From: a virus
Taxonomy: Duplodnaviria > Heunggongvirae > Uroviricota > Caudoviricetes
IMG/VR virus record: IMGVR_UViG_2529293148_000011
Reading direction: 5' to 3' (one strand)
Length of the DNA stretch: 9,637 nt
Shown: in pieces, positions 1 to 9,637 of the stretch
How the letters are laid out: each line of letters opens with the position of its first letter
Position numbering within the stretch: the first letter of the stretch is position 1
Made by a program: the position numbers and the translations under genes
Notes under the pieces: model-generated
The model's database searches: none
What the model saw: the letters and a program-made list of their open reading frames with translations, nothing else
What the model was told of the DNA's origin: nothing

Positions 1-54
1 CCGTCGCCAGTTGTCGTTGGTATTCTGCAACTGGCGCGTTCCGGAGTGATAGCC

Positions 55-324
55 ATGAGCGAACAGTACCTGATAACGCTCGACGAGTGGAAACCAAAAC
101 GGTTCAGTCTCCCAATAACAAACACTACCCTGGTGAAATACGGAAAACTAGGATACATCGTTCCAAGACCACAAAAAATTCGTGGGCGTTGGCTGATAGA
201 TCGCCGGGCAGTATTTGTTGGACCTGGTGAAACGGGAATTGCGCCGGAAATTCATACTGGCGATGATGATGCACTGAAGGAGATTTTAACTCATGTCACC
301 GAGGCCACGAAAAAACAGCACTGA
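55..324 (+). CDS. xis: Excisionase (Xis-like, lambda/e14 type)
   Basis: ATG at 55 preceded by GGAG at 43-46. N-terminus MSEQYLITLDEW resembles lambda Xis MYLTLQEW. Small basic protein directly upstream of int, overlapping it by 32 nt as in lambda. The frame is open back to the window edge, so a longer upstream start (track uses GTG at 46) cannot be excluded. Confidence 0.75.
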   Translation: MSEQYLITLDEWKPKRFSLPITNTTLVKYGKLGYIVPRPQKIRGRWLIDRRAVFVGPGETGIAPEIHTGDDDALKEILTHVTEATKKQH

Positions 325-1411
325 CGTAACCGGTCTTTACGAAAAGTTTGATCGCAGAACTGGCAGGGTTTACTACCAGTATAAAAACCCTGTGACTGGA
401 AAATTTCACGGTCTCGGAACAGACAAAGGCAAAGCAGAAAAAATCGCTTCCACAGCCAATCAGCGAATAGCTGCAGCAGAAGCTGAATATTTCATGCGCA
501 AAATTGATGAAAGTCCGTCAGCAACAAAACGTCGGGGCATCAGATTAAAGGCATGGGTTGATCGATATCTGAAAATACAGGACGCGCGACTGAAAAATGG
601 AGATATTGCAGCTACAACTCACAAAGAAAAAACTCGAATGGCTGCATACCTGGTTTCCCGTCTGGGAAACCACCCATTGAAAGAACTGGAAGTAAGAGAC
701 TTTGCATTAATACTGGATGAGTGGCTGGATAAAGACATGGTCAGCACAGCGAGAGTAAATCGTGGATTATGGGTTGATATTTATAAAGAAGCACAGCATG
801 CAGGGGAAGTTCCTCCTGGATGGAATCCTCCGGAGGCTACCCGTAAACCGATCCCTAAAGTAACCAGAGCCAGGCTCACCATGGAAGACTGGCAAAAAAT
901 TTACAATGCAACGCCTGAAAAACACTTTATCCGTAACGCAATGCTTCTTGCGATTGTTACTGGTCAGCGCCGTGATGACATTTGCCACATGCGTTTTTCA
1001 GATGTGTGGAACGAACACTTGCATATCACCCAGGGAAAAACCGGAATGCGTCTGGCGTTACCGCTTACACTACGCTGTGATGCCATTGGGATAACGTTAA
1101 AAGAAGTTATTGATGGGTGCCGAGACAGAATATTAAGTCCATATCTAATCCATAGTCGGCACCAGAAACAACCGAAGCCGATGAGTAAAGACAACCTGAG
1201 CGACTACTTTGCCAAAGCACGGGATCTGGCTGGGATAATTCCACCAGCAGGAAAAACTCCGCCAACATTTCATGAACAACGCTCTCTATCAGAACGGCTG
1301 TACCGTGCACAGGGTATCGATACAAAAACATTACTAGGGCATAAAGTCCAGGCAACCACCGATCGCTATAACGATACTCGAGGTCAGGAATGGGTTAAGT
1401 TGGTTATTTGA
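293..1411 (+). CDS. int: Tyrosine site-specific integrase, lambda Int family
   Basis: 372 aa. C-terminus HEQRSLSERLYRAQGIDTKTLLGHKVQATTDRYNDTRGQEWVKLVI parallels the lambda Int catalytic region (H-x-x-R, LLGH, Y) as recalled. AAGGAG lies upstream of the ATG at 293. Resembles e14 IntE from memory. Confidence 0.95.
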   Translation: MSPRPRKNSTDVTGLYEKFDRRTGRVYYQYKNPVTGKFHGLGTDKGKAEKIASTANQRIAAAEAEYFMRKIDESPSATKRRGIRLKAWVDRYLKIQDARLKNGDIAATTHKEKTRMAAYLVSRLGNHPLKELEVRDFALILDEWLDKDMVSTARVNRGLWVDIYKEAQHAGEVPPGWNPPEATRKPIPKVTRARLTMEDWQKIYNATPEKHFIRNAMLLAIVTGQRRDDICHMRFSDVWNEHLHITQGKTGMRLALPLTLRCDAIGITLKEVIDGCRDRILSPYLIHSRHQKQPKPMSKDNLSDYFAKARDLAGIIPPAGKTPPTFHEQRSLSERLYRAQGIDTKTLLGHKVQATTDRYNDTRGQEWVKLVI

Positions 1412-1474
1412 CAAACACCATATGGAATATCCGTCACCATCTCAGGAAAAAAGTGTTGTAAAATGCGTGGCCTA

Positions 1475-1510
1475 GTTTTGGGGAAACGTTTTGGAGAGAT
1501 TTTGGAGAAA
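1475..1510 (+). repeat. Three tandem direct repeats of GTTTTGGRGA (1475-1484, 1488-1497, 1500-1510); candidate integrase arm-type sites
   Basis: Read directly from the sequence, period 12-13 bp, non-coding, about 65 bp downstream of the int stop. Confidence 0.4.
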
Positions 1511-1629
1511 GGAAAAAATTGAATAAATTCAAAATCCTGAAAGTGTCCCGCCTTATGAATAAGAAGGTGAGCGAATTAGATGATTAATCCTTTATATTCA
1601 ATGCATTAAGTTTGTTTTTGAGTGGTTTT

Positions 1630-1647
1630 GCCGTTTAATGTAACGGC
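1630..1647. other. Inverted repeat GCCGTT-TAATGT-AACGGC; candidate att core
   Basis: Perfect 6-bp arms around a 6-bp AT-rich spacer, in an AT-rich region between the two clusters of GTTTTGGAGA motifs. The geometry resembles tyrosine-recombinase core sites. Confidence 0.3.
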
Positions 1648-1683
1648 GTTATAGATCCTATCAAAATCAATCAATTCCGTTCT

Positions 1684-1710
1684 GGTTTTGGAGAAAGATT
1701 TTTCGAGAGC
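1684..1710 (+). repeat. Fourth GTTTTGGAGAAAG motif copy plus a degenerate copy; candidate arm-type site on the other side of the core
   Basis: GGTTTTGGAGAAAG at 1684-1697 is identical to the third unit of the 1475-1510 cluster, in the same orientation. Confidence 0.35.
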
Positions 1711-1752
1711 TTCGGTCTTTAACTAAAACTGATTGCGTATAATCCCAATACC

Positions 1753-1782
1753 CCTCCCCGACTATCTGAATGGTCGGGGAGG
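1753..1782 (-). terminator. GC-rich hairpin (10-bp perfect stem CCTCCCCGAC/GTCGGGGAGG, 10-nt loop) downstream of the tfa remnant
   Basis: Lies 37 nt 3' of the tfa-remnant stop on the - strand. No clean U-tract follows, so it may be a decayed terminator or an RNA processing site. Confidence 0.35.
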
Positions 1783-1818
1783 CACTTCAAGCACAAAATA
1801 TCATCCCTGCGCCGTTGA

Positions 1819-2049
1819 TTACTCTGCAGGTGAAGTCGGCCACTCAATATCAGGTGCAGTTGATGTATCAACACGATTCAACAATACCCGATATTTATTC
1901 CATGCCTCCAGCAACGATCTTTCTTCCTCCTTTGCGATTTCCAGATCTACAGCATCCTGCAGTGGCGCAATATACTCACTGAATTCCTGGGTGTAGAACT
2001 GTGTGGTGACGGTCTTCCAGCCATTCGGCTCCTGCTGTATCGAAGCATA
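1819..2049 (-). pseudogene. tfa: Tail fibre assembly protein (lambda Tfa type), 3' fragment without a start
   Basis: The - strand translates as ...[53 protein letters not shown]-stop, matching the conserved lambda/e14 Tfa C-terminus. The frame is closed by TAG at 2050-2052 with no ATG or GTG, so only about 77 codons remain. Not in the ORF track because it has no start. Confidence 0.7.
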
Positions 2050-2141
2050 CTAGGCTATTTCAATATCGCTATGCTGCGGCAGCATTTAACCCCTTGTAAT
2101 TCATCGCCATAATTGATTTAATTCACAAACAAAACTATAAC

Positions 2142-2810
2142 ATGGTGAAATTAATGAAAAAAAACACAGATGATGGGGCTAAAATTTACACACCACTTAC
2201 CCTAAAGCTTTATGACTGGTGGGTTTTGGGAGTATCAAATCGGCTTGCATGGGGATGTCCTACAAAGGAATACCTTCTTCCACACTTTCTGGAACATTTA
2301 GGTAACAACCATCTGGATATTGGTGTTGGAACTGGGTTTTACCTTACTCACGTACCTGAGAGTAGTCTGATATCTTTAATGGATTTGAACGAAGCTAGCC
2401 TGAACGCGGCATCTACAAGGGCTGGGGAATCAAAAATTAAACATAAAATTAGCCATGATGTTTTTGAACCTTATCCCGCGGCGTTACATGGTCAATTTGA
2501 TTCCATTTCCATGTTTTACCTTCTTCACTGCCTGCCTGGAAATATATCTACAAAAAGCTGTGTAATACGCAATGCGGCGCAGGCCTTAACTGACGATGGA
2601 ACTCTATACGGAGCCACAATTCTTGGCGATGGAGTTGTGCACAATAGCTTCGGTCAAAAACTGATGCGCATTTACAATCAGAAAGGCATCTTTTCAAACA
2701 CAAAAGATTCCGAAGAAGGCTTAACGCATATACTCTCAGAGCATTTCGAGAATGTTAAAACCAAGGTTCAAGGTACTGTAGTAATGTTTTCCGCTTCAGG
2801 GAAAAAATAG
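2142..2810 (+). CDS. Class I SAM-dependent methyltransferase (small-molecule type), likely cargo/moron gene
   Basis: Motif I LDIGVGTG and a post-II-like FDSISMFYLLHCLP. No DPPY/NPPY or PCQ DNA-methyltransferase motifs. The ATG at 2154 has a better SD (GGTGA at 2144-2148) than the ATG at 2142. May correspond to e14 YmfD, but that is an unverified recollection. Confidence 0.8.
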   Translation: MVKLMKKNTDDGAKIYTPLTLKLYDWWVLGVSNRLAWGCPTKEYLLPHFLEHLGNNHLDIGVGTGFYLTHVPESSLISLMDLNEASLNAASTRAGESKIKHKISHDVFEPYPAALHGQFDSISMFYLLHCLPGNISTKSCVIRNAAQALTDDGTLYGATILGDGVVHNSFGQKLMRIYNQKGIFSNTKDSEEGLTHILSEHFENVKTKVQGTVVMFSASGKK

Positions 2811-2817
2811 CATCCAA

Positions 2818-2850
2818 CCGCAGCACGTTCTTGCTTAAGACGTGCTGCGG
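2818..2850 (-). terminator. Hairpin (10-bp stem CCGCAGCACG/CGTGCTGCGG, 13-nt loop) between the convergent methyltransferase gene and the pin/tfa remnant
   Basis: Lies 15 nt 3' of the - strand remnant stop. On the - strand a T-run follows after 10 nt (TTGGATGCTATTTTTT). Confidence 0.4.
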
Positions 2851-2864
2851 CATAATCCCAATGA

Positions 2865-3191
2865 TTACTCCATGACAGGGTTCGTAGGCCACTCAATATC
2901 AGGTGCAGTTGATGTATCAACACGATTCAGCAACACCCGATACTTTTTCCAGGCTTCCACCACCAGCACGACAAGATGCCGCATACAGTGACCCAGTCAG
3001 TCCAGTTTCCAGACAACCAGTGCGTCACCTTTTTGAAGGCGCTTTAAAGCACGTTTTAATCCAGGTCGGCCTGTCCTTGTTCCGCTTTATTTATCTTCAA
3101 ATATTTGTTCACATCCTGCACAAACAAGAGCGTTTCGTTGCAGGTCTGTATTCTGGTCATTTGTTGATACCCTTACATAACCAATCAGCAC
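2865..3191 (-). pseudogene. pin: Serine DNA invertase (Pin/Gin/Hin/Cin family) N-terminal remnant fused to a tfa 3' end; two in-frame stops
   Basis: From GTG at 3191..3189 (SD GGGAGA upstream) the - strand reads VLIGYVRVSTNDQNTDLQRNALVCAGCEQIFEDK[84 protein letters not shown]. The first ~77 codons match the invertase N-terminus including the catalytic-serine region. Stops are TAA at 3089..3087 and TGA at 2999..2997. The last ~31 codons are a Tfa C-terminus. Confidence 0.75.
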
Positions 3192-3245
3192 ACTGAATCT
3201 CCCGTCCAAAAGCGCAAATCATGCCATGCAGGCCGGATACGGCCA

Positions 3246-3271
3246 TTATCTAAAACCTCGGTTTACAGGAA
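3246..3271. other. Din-family invertase crossover site (gix/pix/hix-like): TTATCTAAAACC TC GGTTTACAGGAA
   Basis: Two 12-bp half-sites, TTATCnAAAACC and GGTTTACAGGAA (reverse complement TTCCTGTAAACC), around a 2-bp core; this fits gix as recalled. It sits 55 bp upstream of the pin start and abuts the orphan fibre segment. Confidence 0.6.
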
Positions 3272-3649
3272 ACGGTAAATCAGGCTTCTGGCGCATTACA
3301 GAAAAACCAGAACGGTGCAGATATTCCGGTAAAAGATACCTTCACCAAAAATATTGGTGCCTGCCGCGCATATAGAGCATGGCTGAATATTGGTGGCGAT
3401 AGTCAGATCTGGACAACCGCGCAATTTATTTCGTGGCTGGAGAGTCAGGGGGCATTTAACCATCCTTACTGGATGTGCAAAGGCTCATGGGCTTATGCAA
3501 ATAATAAGGTTATTACAGATACAGGTTGCGGAAATATTTGTCTTGCAGGTGCTGTGGTGGAAGTTATTGGCACTCGCGGCGCAATGACCATACGCGTTAC
3601 TACTCCGAGTACGTCCTGCGGCGTCTGTCGCCCATTTTTCCGAAAATAA
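3254..3649 (+). pseudogene. Orphan variable C-terminal segment of a tail fibre protein (Sv-type, Mu/P1/e14-like), no start codon
   Basis: A 132-codon open frame starts inside the crossover site: NLGLQETVNQASGALQKNQNGADIPVKDTFTKNIGACRAYRAWLNIGGDSQIWTTAQFISWLESQGAFNHPYWMCKGSWAYANNKVITDTGCGNICLAGAVVEVIGTRGAMTIRVTTPSTSCGV... This Gly/Trp/Cys-rich sequence is characteristic of invertible-segment fibre tips as recalled. A TAA at 3251-3253 inside the site closes the frame upstream. Confidence 0.5.
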
Positions 3650-3788
3650 ATGCTCCGACAATACGTGCCACATAACCTGCACCGTAGGTTCCCATTGCCA
3701 GAATTAACGCCATTGCCGTTGATGATTCAGGAAAAAATATTTCATGAAACACTAACGCTGCGCCGAGCGAATATAACTGGAAACCCAT
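3600..3788 (-). pseudogene. N-terminal fragment (TM1-TM2) of an MFS metabolite:H+ symporter-type transporter
   Basis: 62-aa ORF MGFQLYSLGAALVFHEIFFPESSTAMALILAMGTYGAGYVARIVGAFIFGKMGDRRRR... resembles the N-terminus of ShiA/ProP-type MFS proteins (ALVFNREFFP...FGHFGDRLGRKR in ShiA as recalled). An in-frame TGA lies immediately upstream of the Met, and the ORF ends inside the fibre-tip segment, so only about 60 codons of a roughly 430-codon gene remain. Confidence 0.45.
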
Positions 3789-4008
3789 GATTCATAGATA
3801 TTTTTTACCATCCTGTGGATTTCTGGGCGTTTTCTAAGTTTTTTTAAGATGGTTGTATTTTTTCTAAAAACTCCTGAACTCGATTTTGCTGTTTGTCTGA
3901 GGCCTTTTTATGTCCCATATATGCCCCAAGGTGCCCCATGTAAATCCAATTCAACTCAAAGCGTCCATGTTCAATATTTTTACAAGGGGCTGGCATATCA
4001 ATGTTTTT

Positions 4009-4584
4009 TTATTGCGTAACGTCAAACGCTCGGATTGAGCGTAAATCATCAAGATTATTCAGTTCTTCCTTCATCTCCCGCTGACGCTGATAAATCTCGT
4101 TATTGCGATCGACCTGTGCCTGCGCCATTGCTGTCGCCAGTTCTTCCAGTTCCGGCATTGACAGTTTCACCTGTTGATTATCGGCATCACCCCATGCAAG
4201 GGCGGTTAGTGCCGTATCAGATTTCGCCGCCATTACTACCGGATAAAGACGGGCCATTGAGTCGGGGCCAGCGTTCCAGGTGCGACCGTTCCATTCAAAG
4301 GTGAACGGCAGTGCTTCCTGTTCTGTGCGCCATGCCTCGATTTCCTGCTTTTTGGCATCCTTCGCCGCGGCGATAAGTTCCGGCGTGACAGTGAAAGGGG
4401 CGATTTCGCCCCATTTGCCGTTCTGCAACTCTTCCCAGATGCGCTGGCCTGTCGGTGCGGTATCATCCTGCATGGCGGTATACGGGACGAATTCCGTTTC
4501 ACCTTCAAATAACACCTCGCAGTCAACCGCACCATTTTCAAGATAATGGGCGTTTCTGATGCCCTTTACCGCTCTGATTTTCAT
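4009..4584 (-). CDS. tfa: Tail fibre assembly protein / chaperone
   Basis: 191-aa ORF starting 13 nt after the stf stop, with SD GGGGAA. Size and position immediately 3' of the side tail fibre gene match Tfa-type chaperones. The C-terminus lacks the [16 protein letters not shown] motif, so it is a different Tfa subfamily from the two remnants. Confidence 0.7.
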   Translation of the reverse strand: MKIRAVKGIRNAHYLENGAVDCEVLFEGETEFVPYTAMQDDTAPTGQRIWEELQNGKWGEIAPFTVTPELIAAAKDAKKQEIEAWRTEQEALPFTFEWNGRTWNAGPDSMARLYPVVMAAKSDTALTALAWGDADNQQVKLSMPELEELATAMAQAQVDRNNEIYQRQREMKEELNNLDDLRSIRAFDVTQ

Positions 4585-4597
4585 GTTTTATTCCCCG

Positions 4598-6721
4598 TTA
4601 CTCGATGCGCACAAACAGGCAGATACGACCGGTTATTCCTTTAGAGTCCCTGACCCCGGATAGCGCCATATAACGCCCCGGGAAAGTGTACCCTGTAGCT
4701 CCTGCACTCGGTGCGGAATTGTAGGAGCCAACCCCAGGAGAAGATATTAAGCACGAAAGATTAACTCCGCCCAGTTGTGACCCCTGCACCACATCACCCA
4801 GGCCAATATTGATTTCTTTATCCCCGAAAGTTGTTCCGCGATAAACAGCCAGCACTGGAACACCCACTGCCGGGTATTTGAAATATGAGCCTGAGCCCGC
4901 CGTCCTGGACAGCAGGAAGGCCAGCGAATCGCCGTCGTAAATAATGGGGCTTACTGTTGCATTCCAGTTGTTTCCACTAAAGCGGTAAGTCAGGAAATGA
5001 ATACTATGCTCACCTTCGTAATACTGGTTAAAACACAGCAGTGTTTTGAATTTGCGTATTGTGTCCGACTCATCGTTATCAAAGGGCGACCACATCACAT
5101 CAATGATGCCGTTAAATTTCTTGGTGCCTACCAGCAGCATGGAAGAATCCGCAAGACTGACCGCATAACGCCCCGGCGTGGCCACTTTCAGCCATTCAAC
5201 AAAATCGGCCTGCCCGTTAAATGTCAGGGCTTCGGTGCTGGCAAATGCCTGACCGAACCCATGCATACCGGACAGTGCCAGCCTGCCCGGTGCGCGGTCG
5301 CGGATATAGCTCTGGGGTTCCATCGTAGCAGCAGCTTTCAGTCCAAGCTCCGTGCGCATGTCTCCAGGCGTGTTTCGTGACAGTAATAAGCGAGCCTTGT
5401 TGCTGCATGGAATTGCTTTTGCCTCAAAGTTATCACCAAAATAAAGGAGAGAGTTTTGTCCCACCCCTACCTTGCTGATATTGGTTAACGTATTGTTAAG
5501 CGGCTGTTTACCTGCCAGTGCTTTAGTAACCGTTGTCGCAAAGTTCGGGTCATTGCCCAGCGCTGCTGCCAGCTCGTTCAGCGTGTCCAGGGCTTCCGGT
5601 GACGAGTCAACCAGCGCAGCAAGCAGTTTGCGAACAAATGCCGCGTTCGCTGTTTCCAGACCGGCAGCATCGTCCGGTGGGGTTGGTGTGGTGGGTGTGC
5701 CGGTGAATGCCGGGCTGTCCAGCGGCGCTTTTGTTTTCGTCTCGTCCATGACGGTTTTGACGGCTTTTGGTGTGGCTGCCAGTTCCTCGCTGTCGTTGTC
5801 TGTATCACTACAGAGTTGCACCAGGCCTTTTTCTGTTGTGGAAGCATTGCTTCCCTTCAGGTCATCAACAATCCGTTGCGCCTCGTCCCTGTGCTGTTTC
5901 GCTTCCTGCGCATTGCCTGCGCTCGCATCCTGGCTGGCCTTCGCCTGCCGGGCGTATTCGGCAGCGTTATTTTCATGGCCCAGCGCAACATTTGCCGCAT
6001 TTTCTGCACTGGTCGCAGCCAAAGATGCTGCTTCCTTATACTGACTGGCGCGTCCGGCTGCATCAACCGATTCATTCCGCGCTGCCCCTGATGCCTGAGC
6101 ACTGTTTTCTGCCTCATTCGCAAAACGCTCTGCGTCATCACGGGCCGTTTCGGTTGCTGTCACATCCTGTGCAGTCTGTTGTGCGCTTCCGGCTGCATTA
6201 TCAGCGTGACTTTTTGCGTTCTGCTCGCTTTTTGCAGCCGCTTCGGCGCTCTGCTGTGCCTGATTTTTCAGCTCTTCTGCCTTATTTTTACTGTCAAGAG
6301 CAGAGGTCGCTGCGTTTGTTGCTGTATCCGCTGCCGACTCTGCTCTTTTACGGTCATCAGTGACCTGCTCTGACTGCCGGGTAACTGCATCCACCATTTC
6401 CTCAAAACGCTTCATCACCTCCGGACGTAAATCACCATCCTTTGGTGCATCCAGAAACGCGTTCAGTGTCCCAGGTGTGTCAGTCGGTGCCACATAAATA
6501 TCCCCGACACGGGTTGGCTGCCAGCCGTTACGGTTAAGCGCAACCTCGTAATACCCCGGCTCAGCCTCAATCACATAAGCACCGTTATTGTCCGTCACAC
6601 AAGTGGCGACAACGTGTGCCACAACGGTCGGACTGGTTCTTCTGGCCCGCAGTTCAATCGCACAATTTACGACAGGCTTACCCGCCCCGTCTTTCAGCAC
6701 ACCTGAAATCTTTACTGCCAT
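4598..6721 (-). CDS. stf: Side tail fibre protein (lambda Stf-like)
   Basis: N-terminus MAVKISGVLKDGAGKPV matches lambda Stf. A long Ala/Ser/Gln/Glu-rich shaft is followed by LAATPKAVKTVMDETKTKAPLDSPAFTGTP...LNELAAALGNDPNFATTVTKALAGKQP, a conserved Stf region. The likely start is ATG 6721..6719 (GGGG SD); the track's GTG at 6727 is two codons upstream. Confidence 0.9.
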   Translation of the reverse strand: MAVKISGVLKDGAGKPVVNCAIELRARRTSPTVVAHVVATCVTDNNGAYVIEAEPGYYEVALNRNGWQPTRVGDIYVAPTDTPGTLNAFLDAPKDGDLRPEVMKRFEEMVDAVTRQSEQVTDDRKRAESAADTATNAATSALDSKNKAEELKNQAQQSAEAAAKSEQNAKSHADNAAGSAQQTAQDVTATETARDDAERFANEAENSAQASGAARNESVDAAGRASQYKEAASLAATSAENAANVALGHENNAAEYARQAKASQDASAGNAQEAKQHRDEAQRIVDDLKGSNASTTEKGLVQLCSDTDNDSEELAATPKAVKTVMDETKTKAPLDSPAFTGTPTTPTPPDDAAGLETANAAFVRKLLAALVDSSPEALDTLNELAAALGNDPNFATTVTKALAGKQPLNNTLTNISKVGVGQNSLLYFGDNFEAKAIPCSNKARLLLSRNTPGDMRTELGLKAAATMEPQSYIRDRAPGRLALSGMHGFGQAFASTEALTFNGQADFVEWLKVATPGRYAVSLADSSMLLVGTKKFNGIIDVMWSPFDNDESDTIRKFKTLLCFNQYYEGEHSIHFLTYRFSGNNWNATVSPIIYDGDSLAFLLSRTAGSGSYFKYPAVGVPVLAVYRGTTFGDKEINIGLGDVVQGSQLGGVNLSCLISSPGVGSYNSAPSAGATGYTFPGRYMALSGVRDSKGITGRICLFVRIE

Positions 6722-6732
6722 ATTCACCCCAC

Positions 6733-6758
6733 AAAAAAGCCCGCCTGAACCGGCGGGC
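6733..6758 (-). terminator. Rho-independent terminator downstream of lom
   Basis: On the - strand: GCCCGCC-GGTTCA-GGCGGGC followed by TTTTTT, between the lom stop (6786) and the stf start (6721). Confidence 0.65.
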
Positions 6759-6785
6759 TGTCATAACACTGTGTTACCTGGCTAA

Positions 6786-7397
6786 TCAGAACTTATAACC
6801 GACACCCACGATGAAACCGTCAGTGCGCCAGTCACCACTGCCGGAGCCTTCATAAGCAAGGTCAATAGTCACCGTTTCTGCCGGGCTGAACTGAAGACCC
6901 GCACCCCATGCCAGCGACAGGTGTCGTGCGGTATAGCCATCACTGGCGGTGGTCGTCTCCTTCACATACCCCGGTTTCAATTCATCACGTCGGTAATCCT
7001 GAACACTGTCAGACCAGCGGGTGTAAGCCATCCCAGCCGTGCCATAGAGACTGACCTGCTCACTGACCTGCCAGACAGGGCCGGCCATCAGACTCACATA
7101 ACGACCGCGCAGGCTTTCATAATGGAGCGTATTTTCACCCGTCTTCATCGTGTCGCTTTTTTTCGCCGACGCATAACTCAGCGAAACAATACCACCCGCA
7201 TGGTCCGTGAATTCATAACGGTATTTCACGTTAATCCCTTTTAAATCACCTGTACGGGCACCGGTACCGGACAATGCCGGCACGCCGCCCGGGTGAACCT
7301 GAGCATATCCCACGGAAAACGCACCGTGTCCGACTTCAGCCTGCGCAGGAAGGGCCATTCCTGCCAGAAAAGCGACAAAAAATAAAATATGGCGCAT
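6786..7397 (-). CDS. lom: Lom-like outer membrane protein (Ail/Lom/PagC family)
   Basis: 203 aa with a signal peptide (MRHILFFVAFLAGMALPAQA). The body and C-terminus (LAYEGSGSGDWRTDGFIVGVGYKF) closely match lambda Lom as recalled. SD GAGAGG precedes the ATG. Confidence 0.9.
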   Translation of the reverse strand: MRHILFFVAFLAGMALPAQAEVGHGAFSVGYAQVHPGGVPALSGTGARTGDLKGINVKYRYEFTDHAGGIVSLSYASAKKSDTMKTGENTLHYESLRGRYVSLMAGPVWQVSEQVSLYGTAGMAYTRWSDSVQDYRRDELKPGYVKETTTASDGYTARHLSLAWGAGLQFSPAETVTIDLAYEGSGSGDWRTDGFIVGVGYKF

Positions 7398-7421
7398 GAT
7401 TACCTCTCGTTTTCAGTCAAT

Positions 7422-7445
7422 AAAAAAGGCACCGCTTCGGGTGCC
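7422..7445 (-). terminator. Rho-independent terminator between J and lom
   Basis: On the - strand: GGCACC-CGAAGC-GGTGCC stem-loop followed by TTTTTT, 20 nt 3' of the J stop. Confidence 0.55.
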
Positions 7446-7464
7446 CCTCCGGGTTAATAAATCG

Positions 7465-9637
7465 TCAGCTGATACTGATTCCTGCCGTGGATTTTTTCAT
7501 GACCACCACCAGTAAATCGCTGATGTACGTTGTCGGCGTCCATTTGTTCGCGCCGGTCGACGACACATTAAACGTCAGGGTGACATGACCCCGTCCTGCC
7601 GGCATATCTATCACCGATGAGAACACCCGGCTGACATCCGTTGCCGGTTCATGGAAAATCTCAGCCCCGTTTTTAAACACCTGCAGCTTGCAGGTGGAAT
7701 ACCAGTATGACTGTTGGTTATGACTGTTGAAATTCTGGTGTTTCGTACCACGAAATAATACCGGCGGAATGATAATCTGCCGGTCGAATCCCTGATCATC
7801 ATAAACCGTGACGGTTATAGTGCCACTGGCATAACTTCCATTTCGCGGGAAAGCCTTACCCACCGTTTTGACAATATCGCCTTCAATCTGGCTGGCTGAC
7901 AGTTTTCCAAGGATCCGGCAGTTCTGATTAATCGTGACGTTGTTGAGCGTCCCGGAATTCGCATTCACGTTACCGCTGATATCAGCATTTCTCGCCGTCA
8001 GCCGCCCGTCCGGTGTCATGGAGAATGCCGGAGGATTACCGGATGACGTGATGCTCACCGCAAATAGTCGCTTCAGGAACACGTCGTTCATGAACAGCTG
8101 ATTCCCCTGCGCCACAAACAGCGGCGTGGTGTTACCGTTCTCCGGGGTAATCATCGCAATGCGATCGGCCTGCAGCAGAATGTTACTCAGGGTCTGACCA
8201 TCAACATCCTCAATCCCTGCACCAATACCGGCCACATAGGGAATACCGTTTTTTGTTTTCTGCACCTTCAGCATATACATGGCATTCAGCTCATTGCGCG
8301 TGTCTGACTGAACCCGCTGGATTTGCTGTATGGTCACGGCCTGGTCACCCAGCTTTTTATCCGTGGTCGAGGTAATTTCACTCCCTTTTTTATCCACGTA
8401 CTGGCGGACCTGTGCTATCTGTCGGGCGTTTTCTGACTGCCCCTGGCTGACAGTCTGTGAGATTTCACTGCTCACCCGGTCCACTTTCTGGTTCACCTGC
8501 GCGATGGCCAGTGCCTGGTCCTCATTCTTTTTCGCAACCAGCTGCGTGAGAGTGTTTTCCGCCTTCCCGATTTTCCGGGTCACTTCTGCGATATCCGTGT
8601 CCATCCGCTGACGGATGTCTTCTTCCAGTTGCGTGACCTCCGTACGCAGCGCTGAAGCATCAATGCGCTCTTTCAGTGCCTGACCAAGAAGCGTCTCATC
8701 TATCAGCCCCCGGAAAATTTCCAGATACCCTTCACCATCATTGCTGGGCTGCCCGCTGGCTTCCACAAAAGCAGATTTTCCCACCAGGTTGACGCTTCGC
8801 ACGTAAAACCAGAAATCCGTCCCCGGCTTAATCCGGCTCCCCTGGACAGTCCACTGACTGCCGGCCCCCAGATAACGGGCAGATTTTTCCACCTGTGCTG
8901 TGTTCGTGATGCGTTTTTCTGAGAACCAGAATTCAAACTGTACCGTCGGGTCATACACCGCAAGACGCGGGACCGCCGTTATCTGAAAATACCCCGGCGT
9001 CAGCTCAATGGTGGCGGGTTTTGCAGGTGCGTTAATCCGGAAGGTGGTGGTGGCAGGATCGCCCTGCTGTCCCCACGCATTTACCGCCCGGACTGTCAGC
9101 CTGTAGTTCCCCAGCGCCAGTTGTGTGAAGCGGTAAGTGGTTTCCGTCGTCCGGGCCGTGCTGACCAGCCGCTCACTGCCGTCATCCGCTGTTACAGTCA
9201 GGCGAAGCAGGAAGCTCACGCCCTTCACCACCTTCGGCGTGTCCCAGCGGGCCAGTACCTGATACTCCCCGCTGTCTGCAGTGACTTCGGCAGTCAGGTG
9301 CTGCACCGCTGGCGGCGTGACACCATTCACCGTGCCGCTCTGGTCGCCGTCAAAGTGCGCCCCGTTATCCACGATGGCTTCTTTTTCCGGTACATGCTGC
9401 ACGGCAGTGATGGCATGCGTGCCGTCATCGTTCTCACGAATACTCACACAGCGGAACAGGCGCTGGCGCAACGTCGGCAGCTTCAGCCCCCATACGCTGT
9501 ATTCAGCAACACCGTCAGGAACACGGCTCACTTTTACCTTCACGCCGTCGGTGACGGACTGAACCTCCACGCTGACCGGATTGCCACTTCCGTCAACCAG
9601 GCTTATCAGCGTGGTACCGGAGGATGGCAGCGTGATT
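7465..9637 (-). CDS. J: Host specificity / central tail fibre protein J (C-terminal ~720 codons; 5' end lies beyond the window)
   Basis: The frame is open from the window edge (9637) to the stop at 7465. A long beta-rich protein immediately upstream of lom-stf-tfa, as in lambda. The C-terminus ...[14 protein letters not shown] is in the receptor-binding region. Confidence 0.9.

Follow-up and report, generated by a model that had tools for sequence, protein, structure and literature searches.

Probably unintegrated attP junction of an Escherichia coli lambda-like temperate phage that integrates between potB and potC

Introduction

Sp6, a lambda-like prophage of E. coli O157:H7 Sakai, has its integration site between potC and potB (PMC8190617). 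Sp6 spontaneously excises into circles, as detected by PCR and sequencing of attP, and it transfers to K-12, where it integrates at the same locus (PMC2669165). Prophages may also lie next to one another: Sp10 is found beside Rac, a case of tandem integration via the att site of a resident prophage (PMC2669165). The cryptic prophage Qin of E. coli K-12, which is defective, resides at a different site, ydfJ.

Here, we examined a 9,637-bp stretch of an IMG/VR caudovirus record (IMGVR_UViG_2529293148_000011), referred to below as the window. It carries xis and int on the plus strand, followed by an intact attP and an accessory region; the minus-strand genes tfa, stf, lom, and J, the last represented by its 3′ part, come next in that order. 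The original prediction had read the order J-lom-stf-tfa-accessory region-att-int-xis as that of a phage genome rather than a prophage; every gene that it named was found, and the order holds. We compared this locus with Sp6, lambda, Qin, and known tandem arrays.

Results

The left end of the window encodes a lambda-type integration module. The int gene (293-1411, plus strand) encodes a lambda-family tyrosine integrase of 372 aa in which both an N-terminal arm-type DNA-binding domain (Arm-DNA-bind_1, PF09003; residues 1-64, E = 4e-21) and a tyrosine-recombinase catalytic domain (Phage_integrase, PF00589; residues 194-363, E = 1.6e-18) were detected. Int matches the lambda Int structures 1z1b, 1z1g, and 5j0n over its full length (residues 26-371, E = 4e-54), and the active-site R, K, HxxR, H, and Y align identically with those of 1z1b (window Int/lambda Int: TGQRRDD/TGQRVGD, QGKTG/QSKTG, FHEQRS/FHELRS, LLGHK/LLGHK, and DRY/SQY). 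We take the numbering of the catalytic residues to be R212, K235, H308, R311, H333, and Y342. Immediately upstream lies xis (55-324, plus strand), a gene for an excisionase of 89 aa whose 3′ end overlaps the start of int. Homology evidence for Xis is thin: it scored 23.2 bits against a cutoff of 23 in a profile search with Pfam Exc, barely enough to pass, and a search of solved structures gave no match. RefSeq calls an identical protein excisionase, and the gene has the same position and size as genes annotated as excisionase in RefSeq loci. Gene calls across the window revealed no second integrase.

The site that the original prediction had called att-like proved to be a genuine attP. Similarity to attL-side loci runs up to position 1569, and similarity to attR-side loci starts at position 1556, leaving a 14-bp core, or overlap region, TGAATAAGAAGGTG (1556-1569; no strand assigned). 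On alignment, this is the only sequence common to the window and to the prophage junctions on the potB and potC sides. It is identical in the window, in the potB-side locus L013, in the potC-side locus L020, and in the attB rebuilt by joining the host flanks, where it occupies the last codons of potB just ahead of the potC start. Judging from the outermost arm-type repeats and the junction alignment, the whole attP, comprising an int-proximal P′ arm, the core, and a P arm, appears to span about 245 bp (about 1466-1710, likewise strandless), similar in size to the lambda attP of about 240 bp. The motif TTTTGGRGARA, which was chosen post hoc, occurs in four exact copies in the window, all of them within attP and on the plus strand. 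Three tandem candidate arm-type sites lie on the int side, 46 to 80 bp from the core (1476-1486, 1489-1499, and 1500-1510), and one lies 117 bp from the core in the P arm, on the distal side (1686-1696); their role as Int-binding sites is putative. The lambda attP has a similar layout: three arm-type repeats stand in tandem on the int side, and the far side has fewer.

Each half of the window corresponds to one end of a true prophage at potB/potC. Window positions 1-1569 match L020 at 100% identity and nine other loci at 99.6% or more, in each case with potC directly after; positions 1556-9637 match L013 at 100% and six others at 99.9% or more, with potB directly before. Among 5,426 complete E. 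coli genomes, the rebuilt attB was contiguous in 3,800 and split at the core in 1,626, in agreement with the 1,627-1,641 complete genomes that carry xis-int; the site is occupied in about 30% of complete genomes. The premise that int-xis and the J/tail-fiber end lie at opposite ends of an integrated prophage also holds in simple lysogens. In the draft contig GCA_045077245.1, the exact Stf and the exact Int are 46.8 kb apart within one prophage that lies between potB and potC, and the order there, as in Sakai Sp6, is potB, tail end ... int, potC.

These identities and the intact attB in 3,800 genomes overturn one part of the original prediction, which had offered an orphan int/att module as a second reading. 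We consider it highly improbable that the module is orphaned or decayed, with the real integration taking place elsewhere via another recombinase. Int has its full length and retains every catalytic residue, xis is intact, the core equals attB, both arms are 100% identical to real prophage ends in many genomes, and the window encodes no other integrase; moreover, Sp6, whose module is 99% identical, integrates at the potB/potC site in experiments. Nothing specific speaks for an orphan, although the accessory region does hold relics of recombination modules, namely, a dead invertase fragment and a fossil ydfJ junction. As a lambda-Int homologue, Int would instead bind the core TGAATAAGAAGGTG and the TTTTGGRGARA repeats of both arms (three int-proximal, one distal) and would recombine this attP of roughly 245 bp with potB, whose 3′ end has the identical 14 bp. 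Integration would split the map to give potB, accessory region-tfa-stf-lom-J ... xis-int, potC, and excision by Int and Xis would rebuild exactly the junction found in the window.

No host potB or potC DNA is present in the window beyond the 14-bp core, whereas a simple prophage has host DNA at its hybrid att sites. Hence, int-xis is joined to the J/tail-fiber end as in the phage map and not as in a simple prophage. We therefore regard the window as probably the attP region of a lambda-like temperate E. coli phage that integrates at potB/potC, in unintegrated configuration. The DNA most likely came from an excised circle or from virions, or else from a phage contig that was assembled as a circle. 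The first part of the original interpretation, a phage, episomal, or permuted assembly, is thus the best-supported reading, backed by a near-identical circular contig, a metagenome junction contig, and the published Sp6 circles.

Circular and junction-form copies were observed directly elsewhere. The IMG/VR contig UViG_2534681703_000014 (45,442 bp) departs from the window sequence at 2 positions. Its two termini share an exact overlap of 123 bp, corresponding to window 1575-1697, which marks it as a circular assembly; across the 37 kb that were read, it holds phage genes only. This self-closure without host DNA belongs to a sibling contig, not to the window's own source. A human-gut metagenome contig has the same P′-core-P junction at 97.9% identity. 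A collapsed tandem of identical prophages would likewise assemble as a "circle."

We searched for the window as a whole as well. It was not matched as such in the collections searched, no phage record or complete genome there covered at least 80% of it, and an exact match to the junction was absent from the GTDB representative genomes. This absence of the exact window, together with the 14 identical bases that the two prophage ends have in common, is what might suggest an assembly chimera in which two prophage ends were linked via the shared core. We give that explanation very little credence, because 14 bases are far under assembler k-mer sizes and the junction occurs independently in the IMG/VR contig, in the metagenome contig, and in 11 closed chromosomes. 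The corresponding Sp6 junction has also been amplified and sequenced (PMC2669165).

The closed chromosomes raise a different possibility, which we rate as unlikely but which the original prediction had missed. The window could be the inner junction of two lambdoid prophages in tandem at potB/potC of a bacterial chromosome, with xis-int from one prophage and the accessory region and tfa-stf-lom-J from the next; a second phage would have entered the att site of the first, leaving a P′-core-P junction between them. Such an array gives an identical 10-kb picture, and Sp10 beside Rac provides a precedent (PMC2669165). The junction order is indeed seen in closed chromosomes: UTME-9 holds a pair of complete, equally oriented lambdoid prophages linked by the junction; O26 strain 97-3250, eight similar genomes, and JB2 also have the junction; and in CD45 and RM10809-3, int is followed by the tail fibers of another prophage. 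Arrays of this kind are rare, however (11 of about 1,630 occupied complete E. coli genomes). All 11 chromosomal junctions are at most 96% identical to the window, and those examined join different prophages. In UTME-9, O26 97-3250, and JB2, the P′-core-P junction likewise lies between an int end and a tail-fiber end, but there it is 95-96% identical to the window and flanked by full prophages on closed chromosomes, and the downstream tail-end modules are effector loci. Both halves of the window, in contrast, match a single 45-47-kb phage at 99.9-100%, and the junction is found without host DNA on the 45.4-kb contig with terminal overlap and on a low-coverage metagenome contig. The fit of both halves to one phage is itself weak evidence for a single element, since the int half, with 99% or higher conservation across about 950 genomes, is too widely conserved to bind it to the tail half. 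An unintegrated phage is the reading that we carry forward, with the caution that phage order in a 10-kb window alone is no proof of a free phage, as tandem prophage arrays look alike.

The right part of the window carries the tfa-like gene, stf, lom, and J, all on the minus strand. The tfa-like gene (4009-4584) encodes a tail-fiber assembly or chaperone-like protein of 191 aa (Pfam DUF4376, E = 2e-17). stf (4598-6721) encodes a side tail fiber of 707 aa (Pfam phage_tail_N, E = 7e-43, and Phage_fiber_2); the exact Stf protein was found in 89 blocks of public assemblies. lom (6786-7397) encodes an Ail/Lom outer-membrane protein of 203 aa (Pfam Ail_Lom, E = 3e-49). The 3′ part of J, the tail tip and host specificity gene, occupies 7465-9637 and encodes the C-terminal 723 residues (Ig_J, Ig_J_second, Phage_Tail_Tip, and Ig_GpJ_C); its 5′ part lies past the window end, and full-length J is 1233 aa in related loci.

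Between attP and the tail genes, the accessory region contains one gene and several fragments. The gene, on the plus strand and thus opposite to the tail genes, encodes a class I SAM-dependent methyltransferase (2142-2810; Pfam Methyltransf_12/23/25 and RefSeq annotation) and adjoins potB in all long integrated contigs. It is bordered by two minus-strand tfa′ fragments, both annotated as incomplete tfa in E1433. The first (1819-1992) is the C-terminal part of a lambda-type tail-fiber assembly gene (Caudo_TAP, E = 3e-24, profile positions 78-131 of 131), and the second (2865-2969), found by repeat search, forms with 1835-1913 a 79-nt direct repeat of 90% identity on both sides of the methyltransferase. 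Further along, the remnant of a Pin/Gin-type serine invertase (3087-3209, minus strand; Pfam Resolvase, E = 1.4e-6) retains only the N-terminal 40 or so residues; at this spot, close relatives keep a "recombinase family protein" of 64 aa. The adjoining noncoding segment (3210-3623, no strand) resembles the tail-fiber segments of other prophages, with matches of 89-97% that fall under the annotations "prophage tail fiber" and "phage tail protein."

Discussion

The window resembles lambda in gene order and strands, in the transcription of int toward attP, in the overlap of xis with int, and in an Int that is homologous over its full length, has an arm-binding domain, and matches lambda Int at the catalytic residues. 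It differs from lambda in its core and host site (the 3′ end of potB versus the gal-bio attB) and in its arm repeat sequence, and a search beyond the core for a sib/tI-like hairpin or terminator found none. Nor is its accessory region related to the lambda b region, and the intact tfa is of the DUF4376 type, whereas lambda-type tfa is present in the window as fragments only. A phage-map order across an intact att site is normal for a phage that is not simply inserted in a chromosome; here it belongs to a common lambda-like phage of E. coli and represents nothing new in kind.

Sp6 resembles the window in the integration module alone. Over window 1-1569, its xis-int-attL end shows 99.0% identity, its Int (ECs_1501) is identical at 369 of 372 residues, and both phages have the 3′ end of potB as integration site. 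When the window was compared with Sakai 1540001-1590000 (50 kb, which includes all of the annotated Sp6 but its last 33 bp), only window 1-1569 matched at the megablast level, so collinearity does not extend across the genome. The tail end of Sp6 is defective and carries the type III secretion effectors espX7, espN, espK, and espO along with IS elements, whereas the window has an intact J-lom-stf-tfa set and a methyltransferase. On this comparison, the window phage shares the Sp6 integration module but is a different phage. A suitable annotation label is the attP region of an Sp6-type, potB/potC-integrating lambdoid phage, of small biological weight; the precise core and both junctions permit read-level typing of attP, attL, attR, and attB.

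One further feature points to the history of the tail end. A minus-strand segment at 3624-3937 is a fossil prophage/host junction, composed of a piece of ydfJ and the arm of ydfJ-integrating prophages. The ydfJ piece (about 170 bp, 3624 to about 3794) matches intact chromosomal ydfJ genes at 97%, and genomes with a prophage at ydfJ match onward to 3929-3937, with such junctions seen in CV261 and in K-12 Qin. We suggest, very tentatively and as a joint proposal that we doubt is right in full, that this segment may mark the whole J-lom-stf-tfa module as captured from a ydfJ-resident prophage by aberrant excision, as in specialized transduction, and later transferred to a backbone that integrates at potB; and, separately, that in the source strain the Sp6-type phage may persist as an extrachromosomal circle, or may form a homologous tandem dilysogen, rather than being a transient excision product. 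Qin itself sits at ydfJ, whereas the ydfJ junction of the window is a fossil in its interior, with the potB site as the active one. The two are nonetheless alike in that a ydfJ fragment and a pin remnant occur in the window as they do at the Qin/ydfJ boundary, and in relatives, the early genes beside this int are Qin-like (dicB, ydfB, ydfC, ydfD, an exonuclease, and DUF968).

The window joins the two ends of a prophage inserted between potB and potC

Six-frame open reading frames and Pfam scans of the window bore out the gene list of the original prediction. The plus strand carries xis (55-324; a marginal match to Pfam Exc) and int (293-1411; a lambda arm-binding domain and a tyrosine-recombinase domain); beyond an accessory region at 1.4-4.0 kb, the minus strand carries a tfa-like gene (4009-4584; DUF4376), stf (4598-6721), lom (6786-7397), and the C-terminal 723 codons of J (7465-9637), which is cut by the window end. 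The integrase aligned with lambda Int structures over its whole length (E = 4e-54), with all catalytic residues identical. Stf is 707 amino acids long in the window versus 662 in close relatives, whose alignment to the window is interrupted between 6063 and 6183, apparently indicating an indel or a difference in repeat number within the central, alanine-rich portion of the fibre.

When the window was compared by megablast with loci from public assemblies, a clean break was found. Positions 1-1569 were 100% identical to a potC-side prophage junction (L020) and at least 99.6% identical to nine more loci, with potC following directly, and positions 1556-9637 were 100% identical to a potB-side junction (L013) and at least 99.9% identical to six more, with potB directly before. 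Common to both matching halves is the 14-base att core, TGAATAAGAAGGTG (1556-1569). We rebuilt the native potB-potC junction by joining the potB flank and the potC flank of the two junctions. This 214-nt attB was contiguous in 3,800 of 5,426 complete Escherichia coli genomes and interrupted precisely at the core in the remaining 1,626, so that some 30% of these genomes are occupied at this site. The number of genomes carrying the window's xis-int (1,627-1,641) agrees with this count.

The motif TTTTGGRGARA occurs in four exact copies in the window, all around the core: three in tandem on the int side, 46-80 bp from the core, and one on the far side, 117 bp from it. These are candidate arm-type Int sites. 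The attP of lambda has arm sites P'1-3 and P1/P2, a layout that the candidate three-plus-one repeats parallel. Unlike in lambda, no sib-like retroregulation hairpin or terminator was found past the core (0 terminator-like sites; fold z-score, −0.92). Elsewhere, in JB2 (L002, 13488-14136), CD45 (L004, 9488-10136), and UTME-9 (L207, 49129-49777), a DUF2335 gene and a small open reading frame have been inserted after the int stop codon, ahead of the att region; these are accessory genes at a place that is normally compact in lambda-type phages.

The integrated form and its effect on the host locus

The window's exact Stf and exact Int were both found within one prophage on a 426-kb draft contig of GCA_045077245.1. 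There the order is potA-potB / methyltransferase ... tfa-stf-lom-J ... xis-int / potC, the arrangement that the original prediction expected of an integrated element, and the prophage measures 46.8 kb from core to core. The window is thus this prophage map closed through attP. Protein look-ups, for which the longest contigs were listed, returned integrated forms in all cases.

Integration parts potAB from potCD and changes the C terminus of PotB from ...KKVELE* to ...KKVSELDD* (window 1556-1592; L013 15100-15260; L020 11180-11340); the duplicated core preserves the bases that immediately precede the potC start. This places potCD right after int and in the same orientation, so it may depend on phage transcription.

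The integration module is shared with Sp6

At its xis-int-attL end, the window shares 99.0% identity with the end of Sp6, a prophage of O157:H7 Sakai annotated as a "lambda-like phage" and located between potC and potB; the two integrases are identical at 369 of 372 residues. Circular Sp6 has been detected by attP PCR without induction, its attP has been sequenced, and the phage has been shown to pass into K-12 and integrate there at the same locus (Asadulghani et al., PMC2669165). The integration module is thus a known one, and it is active. Nothing else in the window matches Sp6, so the two have this module in common without being the same phage. These experiments, together with the identity of both halves to true prophage ends, the intact catalytic residues in the lambda Int alignment, and the rebuilt attB, split where occupied, refute the suggestion that the int/att module is an orphan. 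Gene order, integrase family, att site, and host site were all known already, and experiments with the same module had demonstrated excision to the attP form; the observation is correct but ordinary.

Two GenBank "phages" with the same int, vB_EcoS-813R8 and vB_EcoS-640R1, were considered as sources of attP and rejected, their matches ending at the core (window 1569). Past the core, vB_EcoS-813R8 (L039; ON470619.1, 9578-17079) runs into host potC, potD, cobB, nagK, and lolCDE, which makes this record a predicted prophage region rather than the genome of a virion.

The attP junction recurs in a circular contig and a gut metagenome

Among phage records and complete E. coli genomes, none covered at least 80% of the window. 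An exact 44-mer across the P'-core-P junction was found in one IMG/VR contig, which has two differences from the window and so is not its source, and in one 3.7-kb metagenome contig; GTDB representative genomes gave zero exact matches. The IMG/VR contig (UViG_2534681703_000014; 45,442 bp) is 99.94-99.99% identical to the window, differing in one poly-A length and one substitution at 5891, and its ends share an exact 123-bp overlap that corresponds to window 1575-1697, which marks it as a circular assembly. The scanned part of this contig, 37 kb lying outside roughly 17,388-25,431, contains early genes, Q, a protease-capsid fusion, head-tail genes, and tail genes, and no host genes. The metagenome contig, from human gut, has the same junction at 97.9% identity. 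Given the circular sibling contig and the metagenome junction, the best-supported reading is that the window probably derives from a phage, episomal, or permuted assembly, the first of the two alternatives in the original prediction. That the junction is instead a chimeric assembly is unlikely, because the repeat shared by the two halves is only 14 bp long and the junction recurs independently in the IMG/VR contig, the metagenome contig, and 11 chromosomes.

The early region of the IMG/VR contig also encodes a homologue of the epoxyqueuosine reductase QueH (L176, 2106-2792; Pfam E = 1.6e-65), as do two other loci (L015 and L016, both at 1065-1730). Lambdoid phages do not usually carry such an accessory gene.

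Tandem prophage arrays contain similar junctions

Those 11 chromosomal junctions bear on a reading absent from the original prediction, in which the window spans the boundary between two prophages in tandem. The chromosomal junctions examined were tandem arrays. In UTME-9, two complete lambdoid prophages lie head to tail across the junction, and in JB2, CD45, and RM10809-3, int is followed by the tail fibres of another prophage. O26 97-3250 (L006 and L202; NZ_CP027599.1, about 3.286-3.345 Mb) carries a chain of at least three prophage units with repeated int-to-tfa' junctions, in which two kinds of integrase are each followed by a tfa fragment and type III secretion system effector genes (espM2, espW, nleG, and espK); junctions in phage order therefore recur within one chromosome region. 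The window by itself has no flanking context, and identical prophages in tandem, if collapsed, would likewise assemble as a circle. We also gave less weight to the argument that both halves fit one phage and hence do not come from a tandem, because about 950 genomes carry the int half at 99% identity or more, a degree of conservation too high to prove a link to the tail half. Set against this, the full junction is rare in complete chromosomes, where all 11 examples are at most 96% identical to the window, and we regard a tandem origin as a serious but less probable rival.

The accessory region appears to consist of recombination relics

The accessory region seems to be composed of recombination relics. 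A gene for a SAM-dependent methyltransferase (2142-2810), on the strand opposite to the tail genes, lies between the two copies of a 79-nt direct repeat of tfa C-terminal fragments (1835-1913 and 2884-2962; 90% identical), and a dead 40-residue stub of a Pin/Gin-type invertase (3087-3209) adjoins this block. The whole segment (1819-3209) is probably what remains of an invertible tail-fibre segment with an inserted methyltransferase. After scraps of tail-fibre genes (3210-3623) comes a fragment of ydfJ of about 170 bp, 97% identical to intact chromosomal ydfJ, joined to an arm of ydfJ-integrating prophages (3624-3937); the adjoining arm sequence is the prophage arm found at ydfJ in other genomes (K-12 Qin and CV261). 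This stretch resembles the fossil of a prophage/host junction, and the joining of ydfJ to such an arm suggests that the tail-fibre end formerly belonged to a ydfJ-resident prophage.
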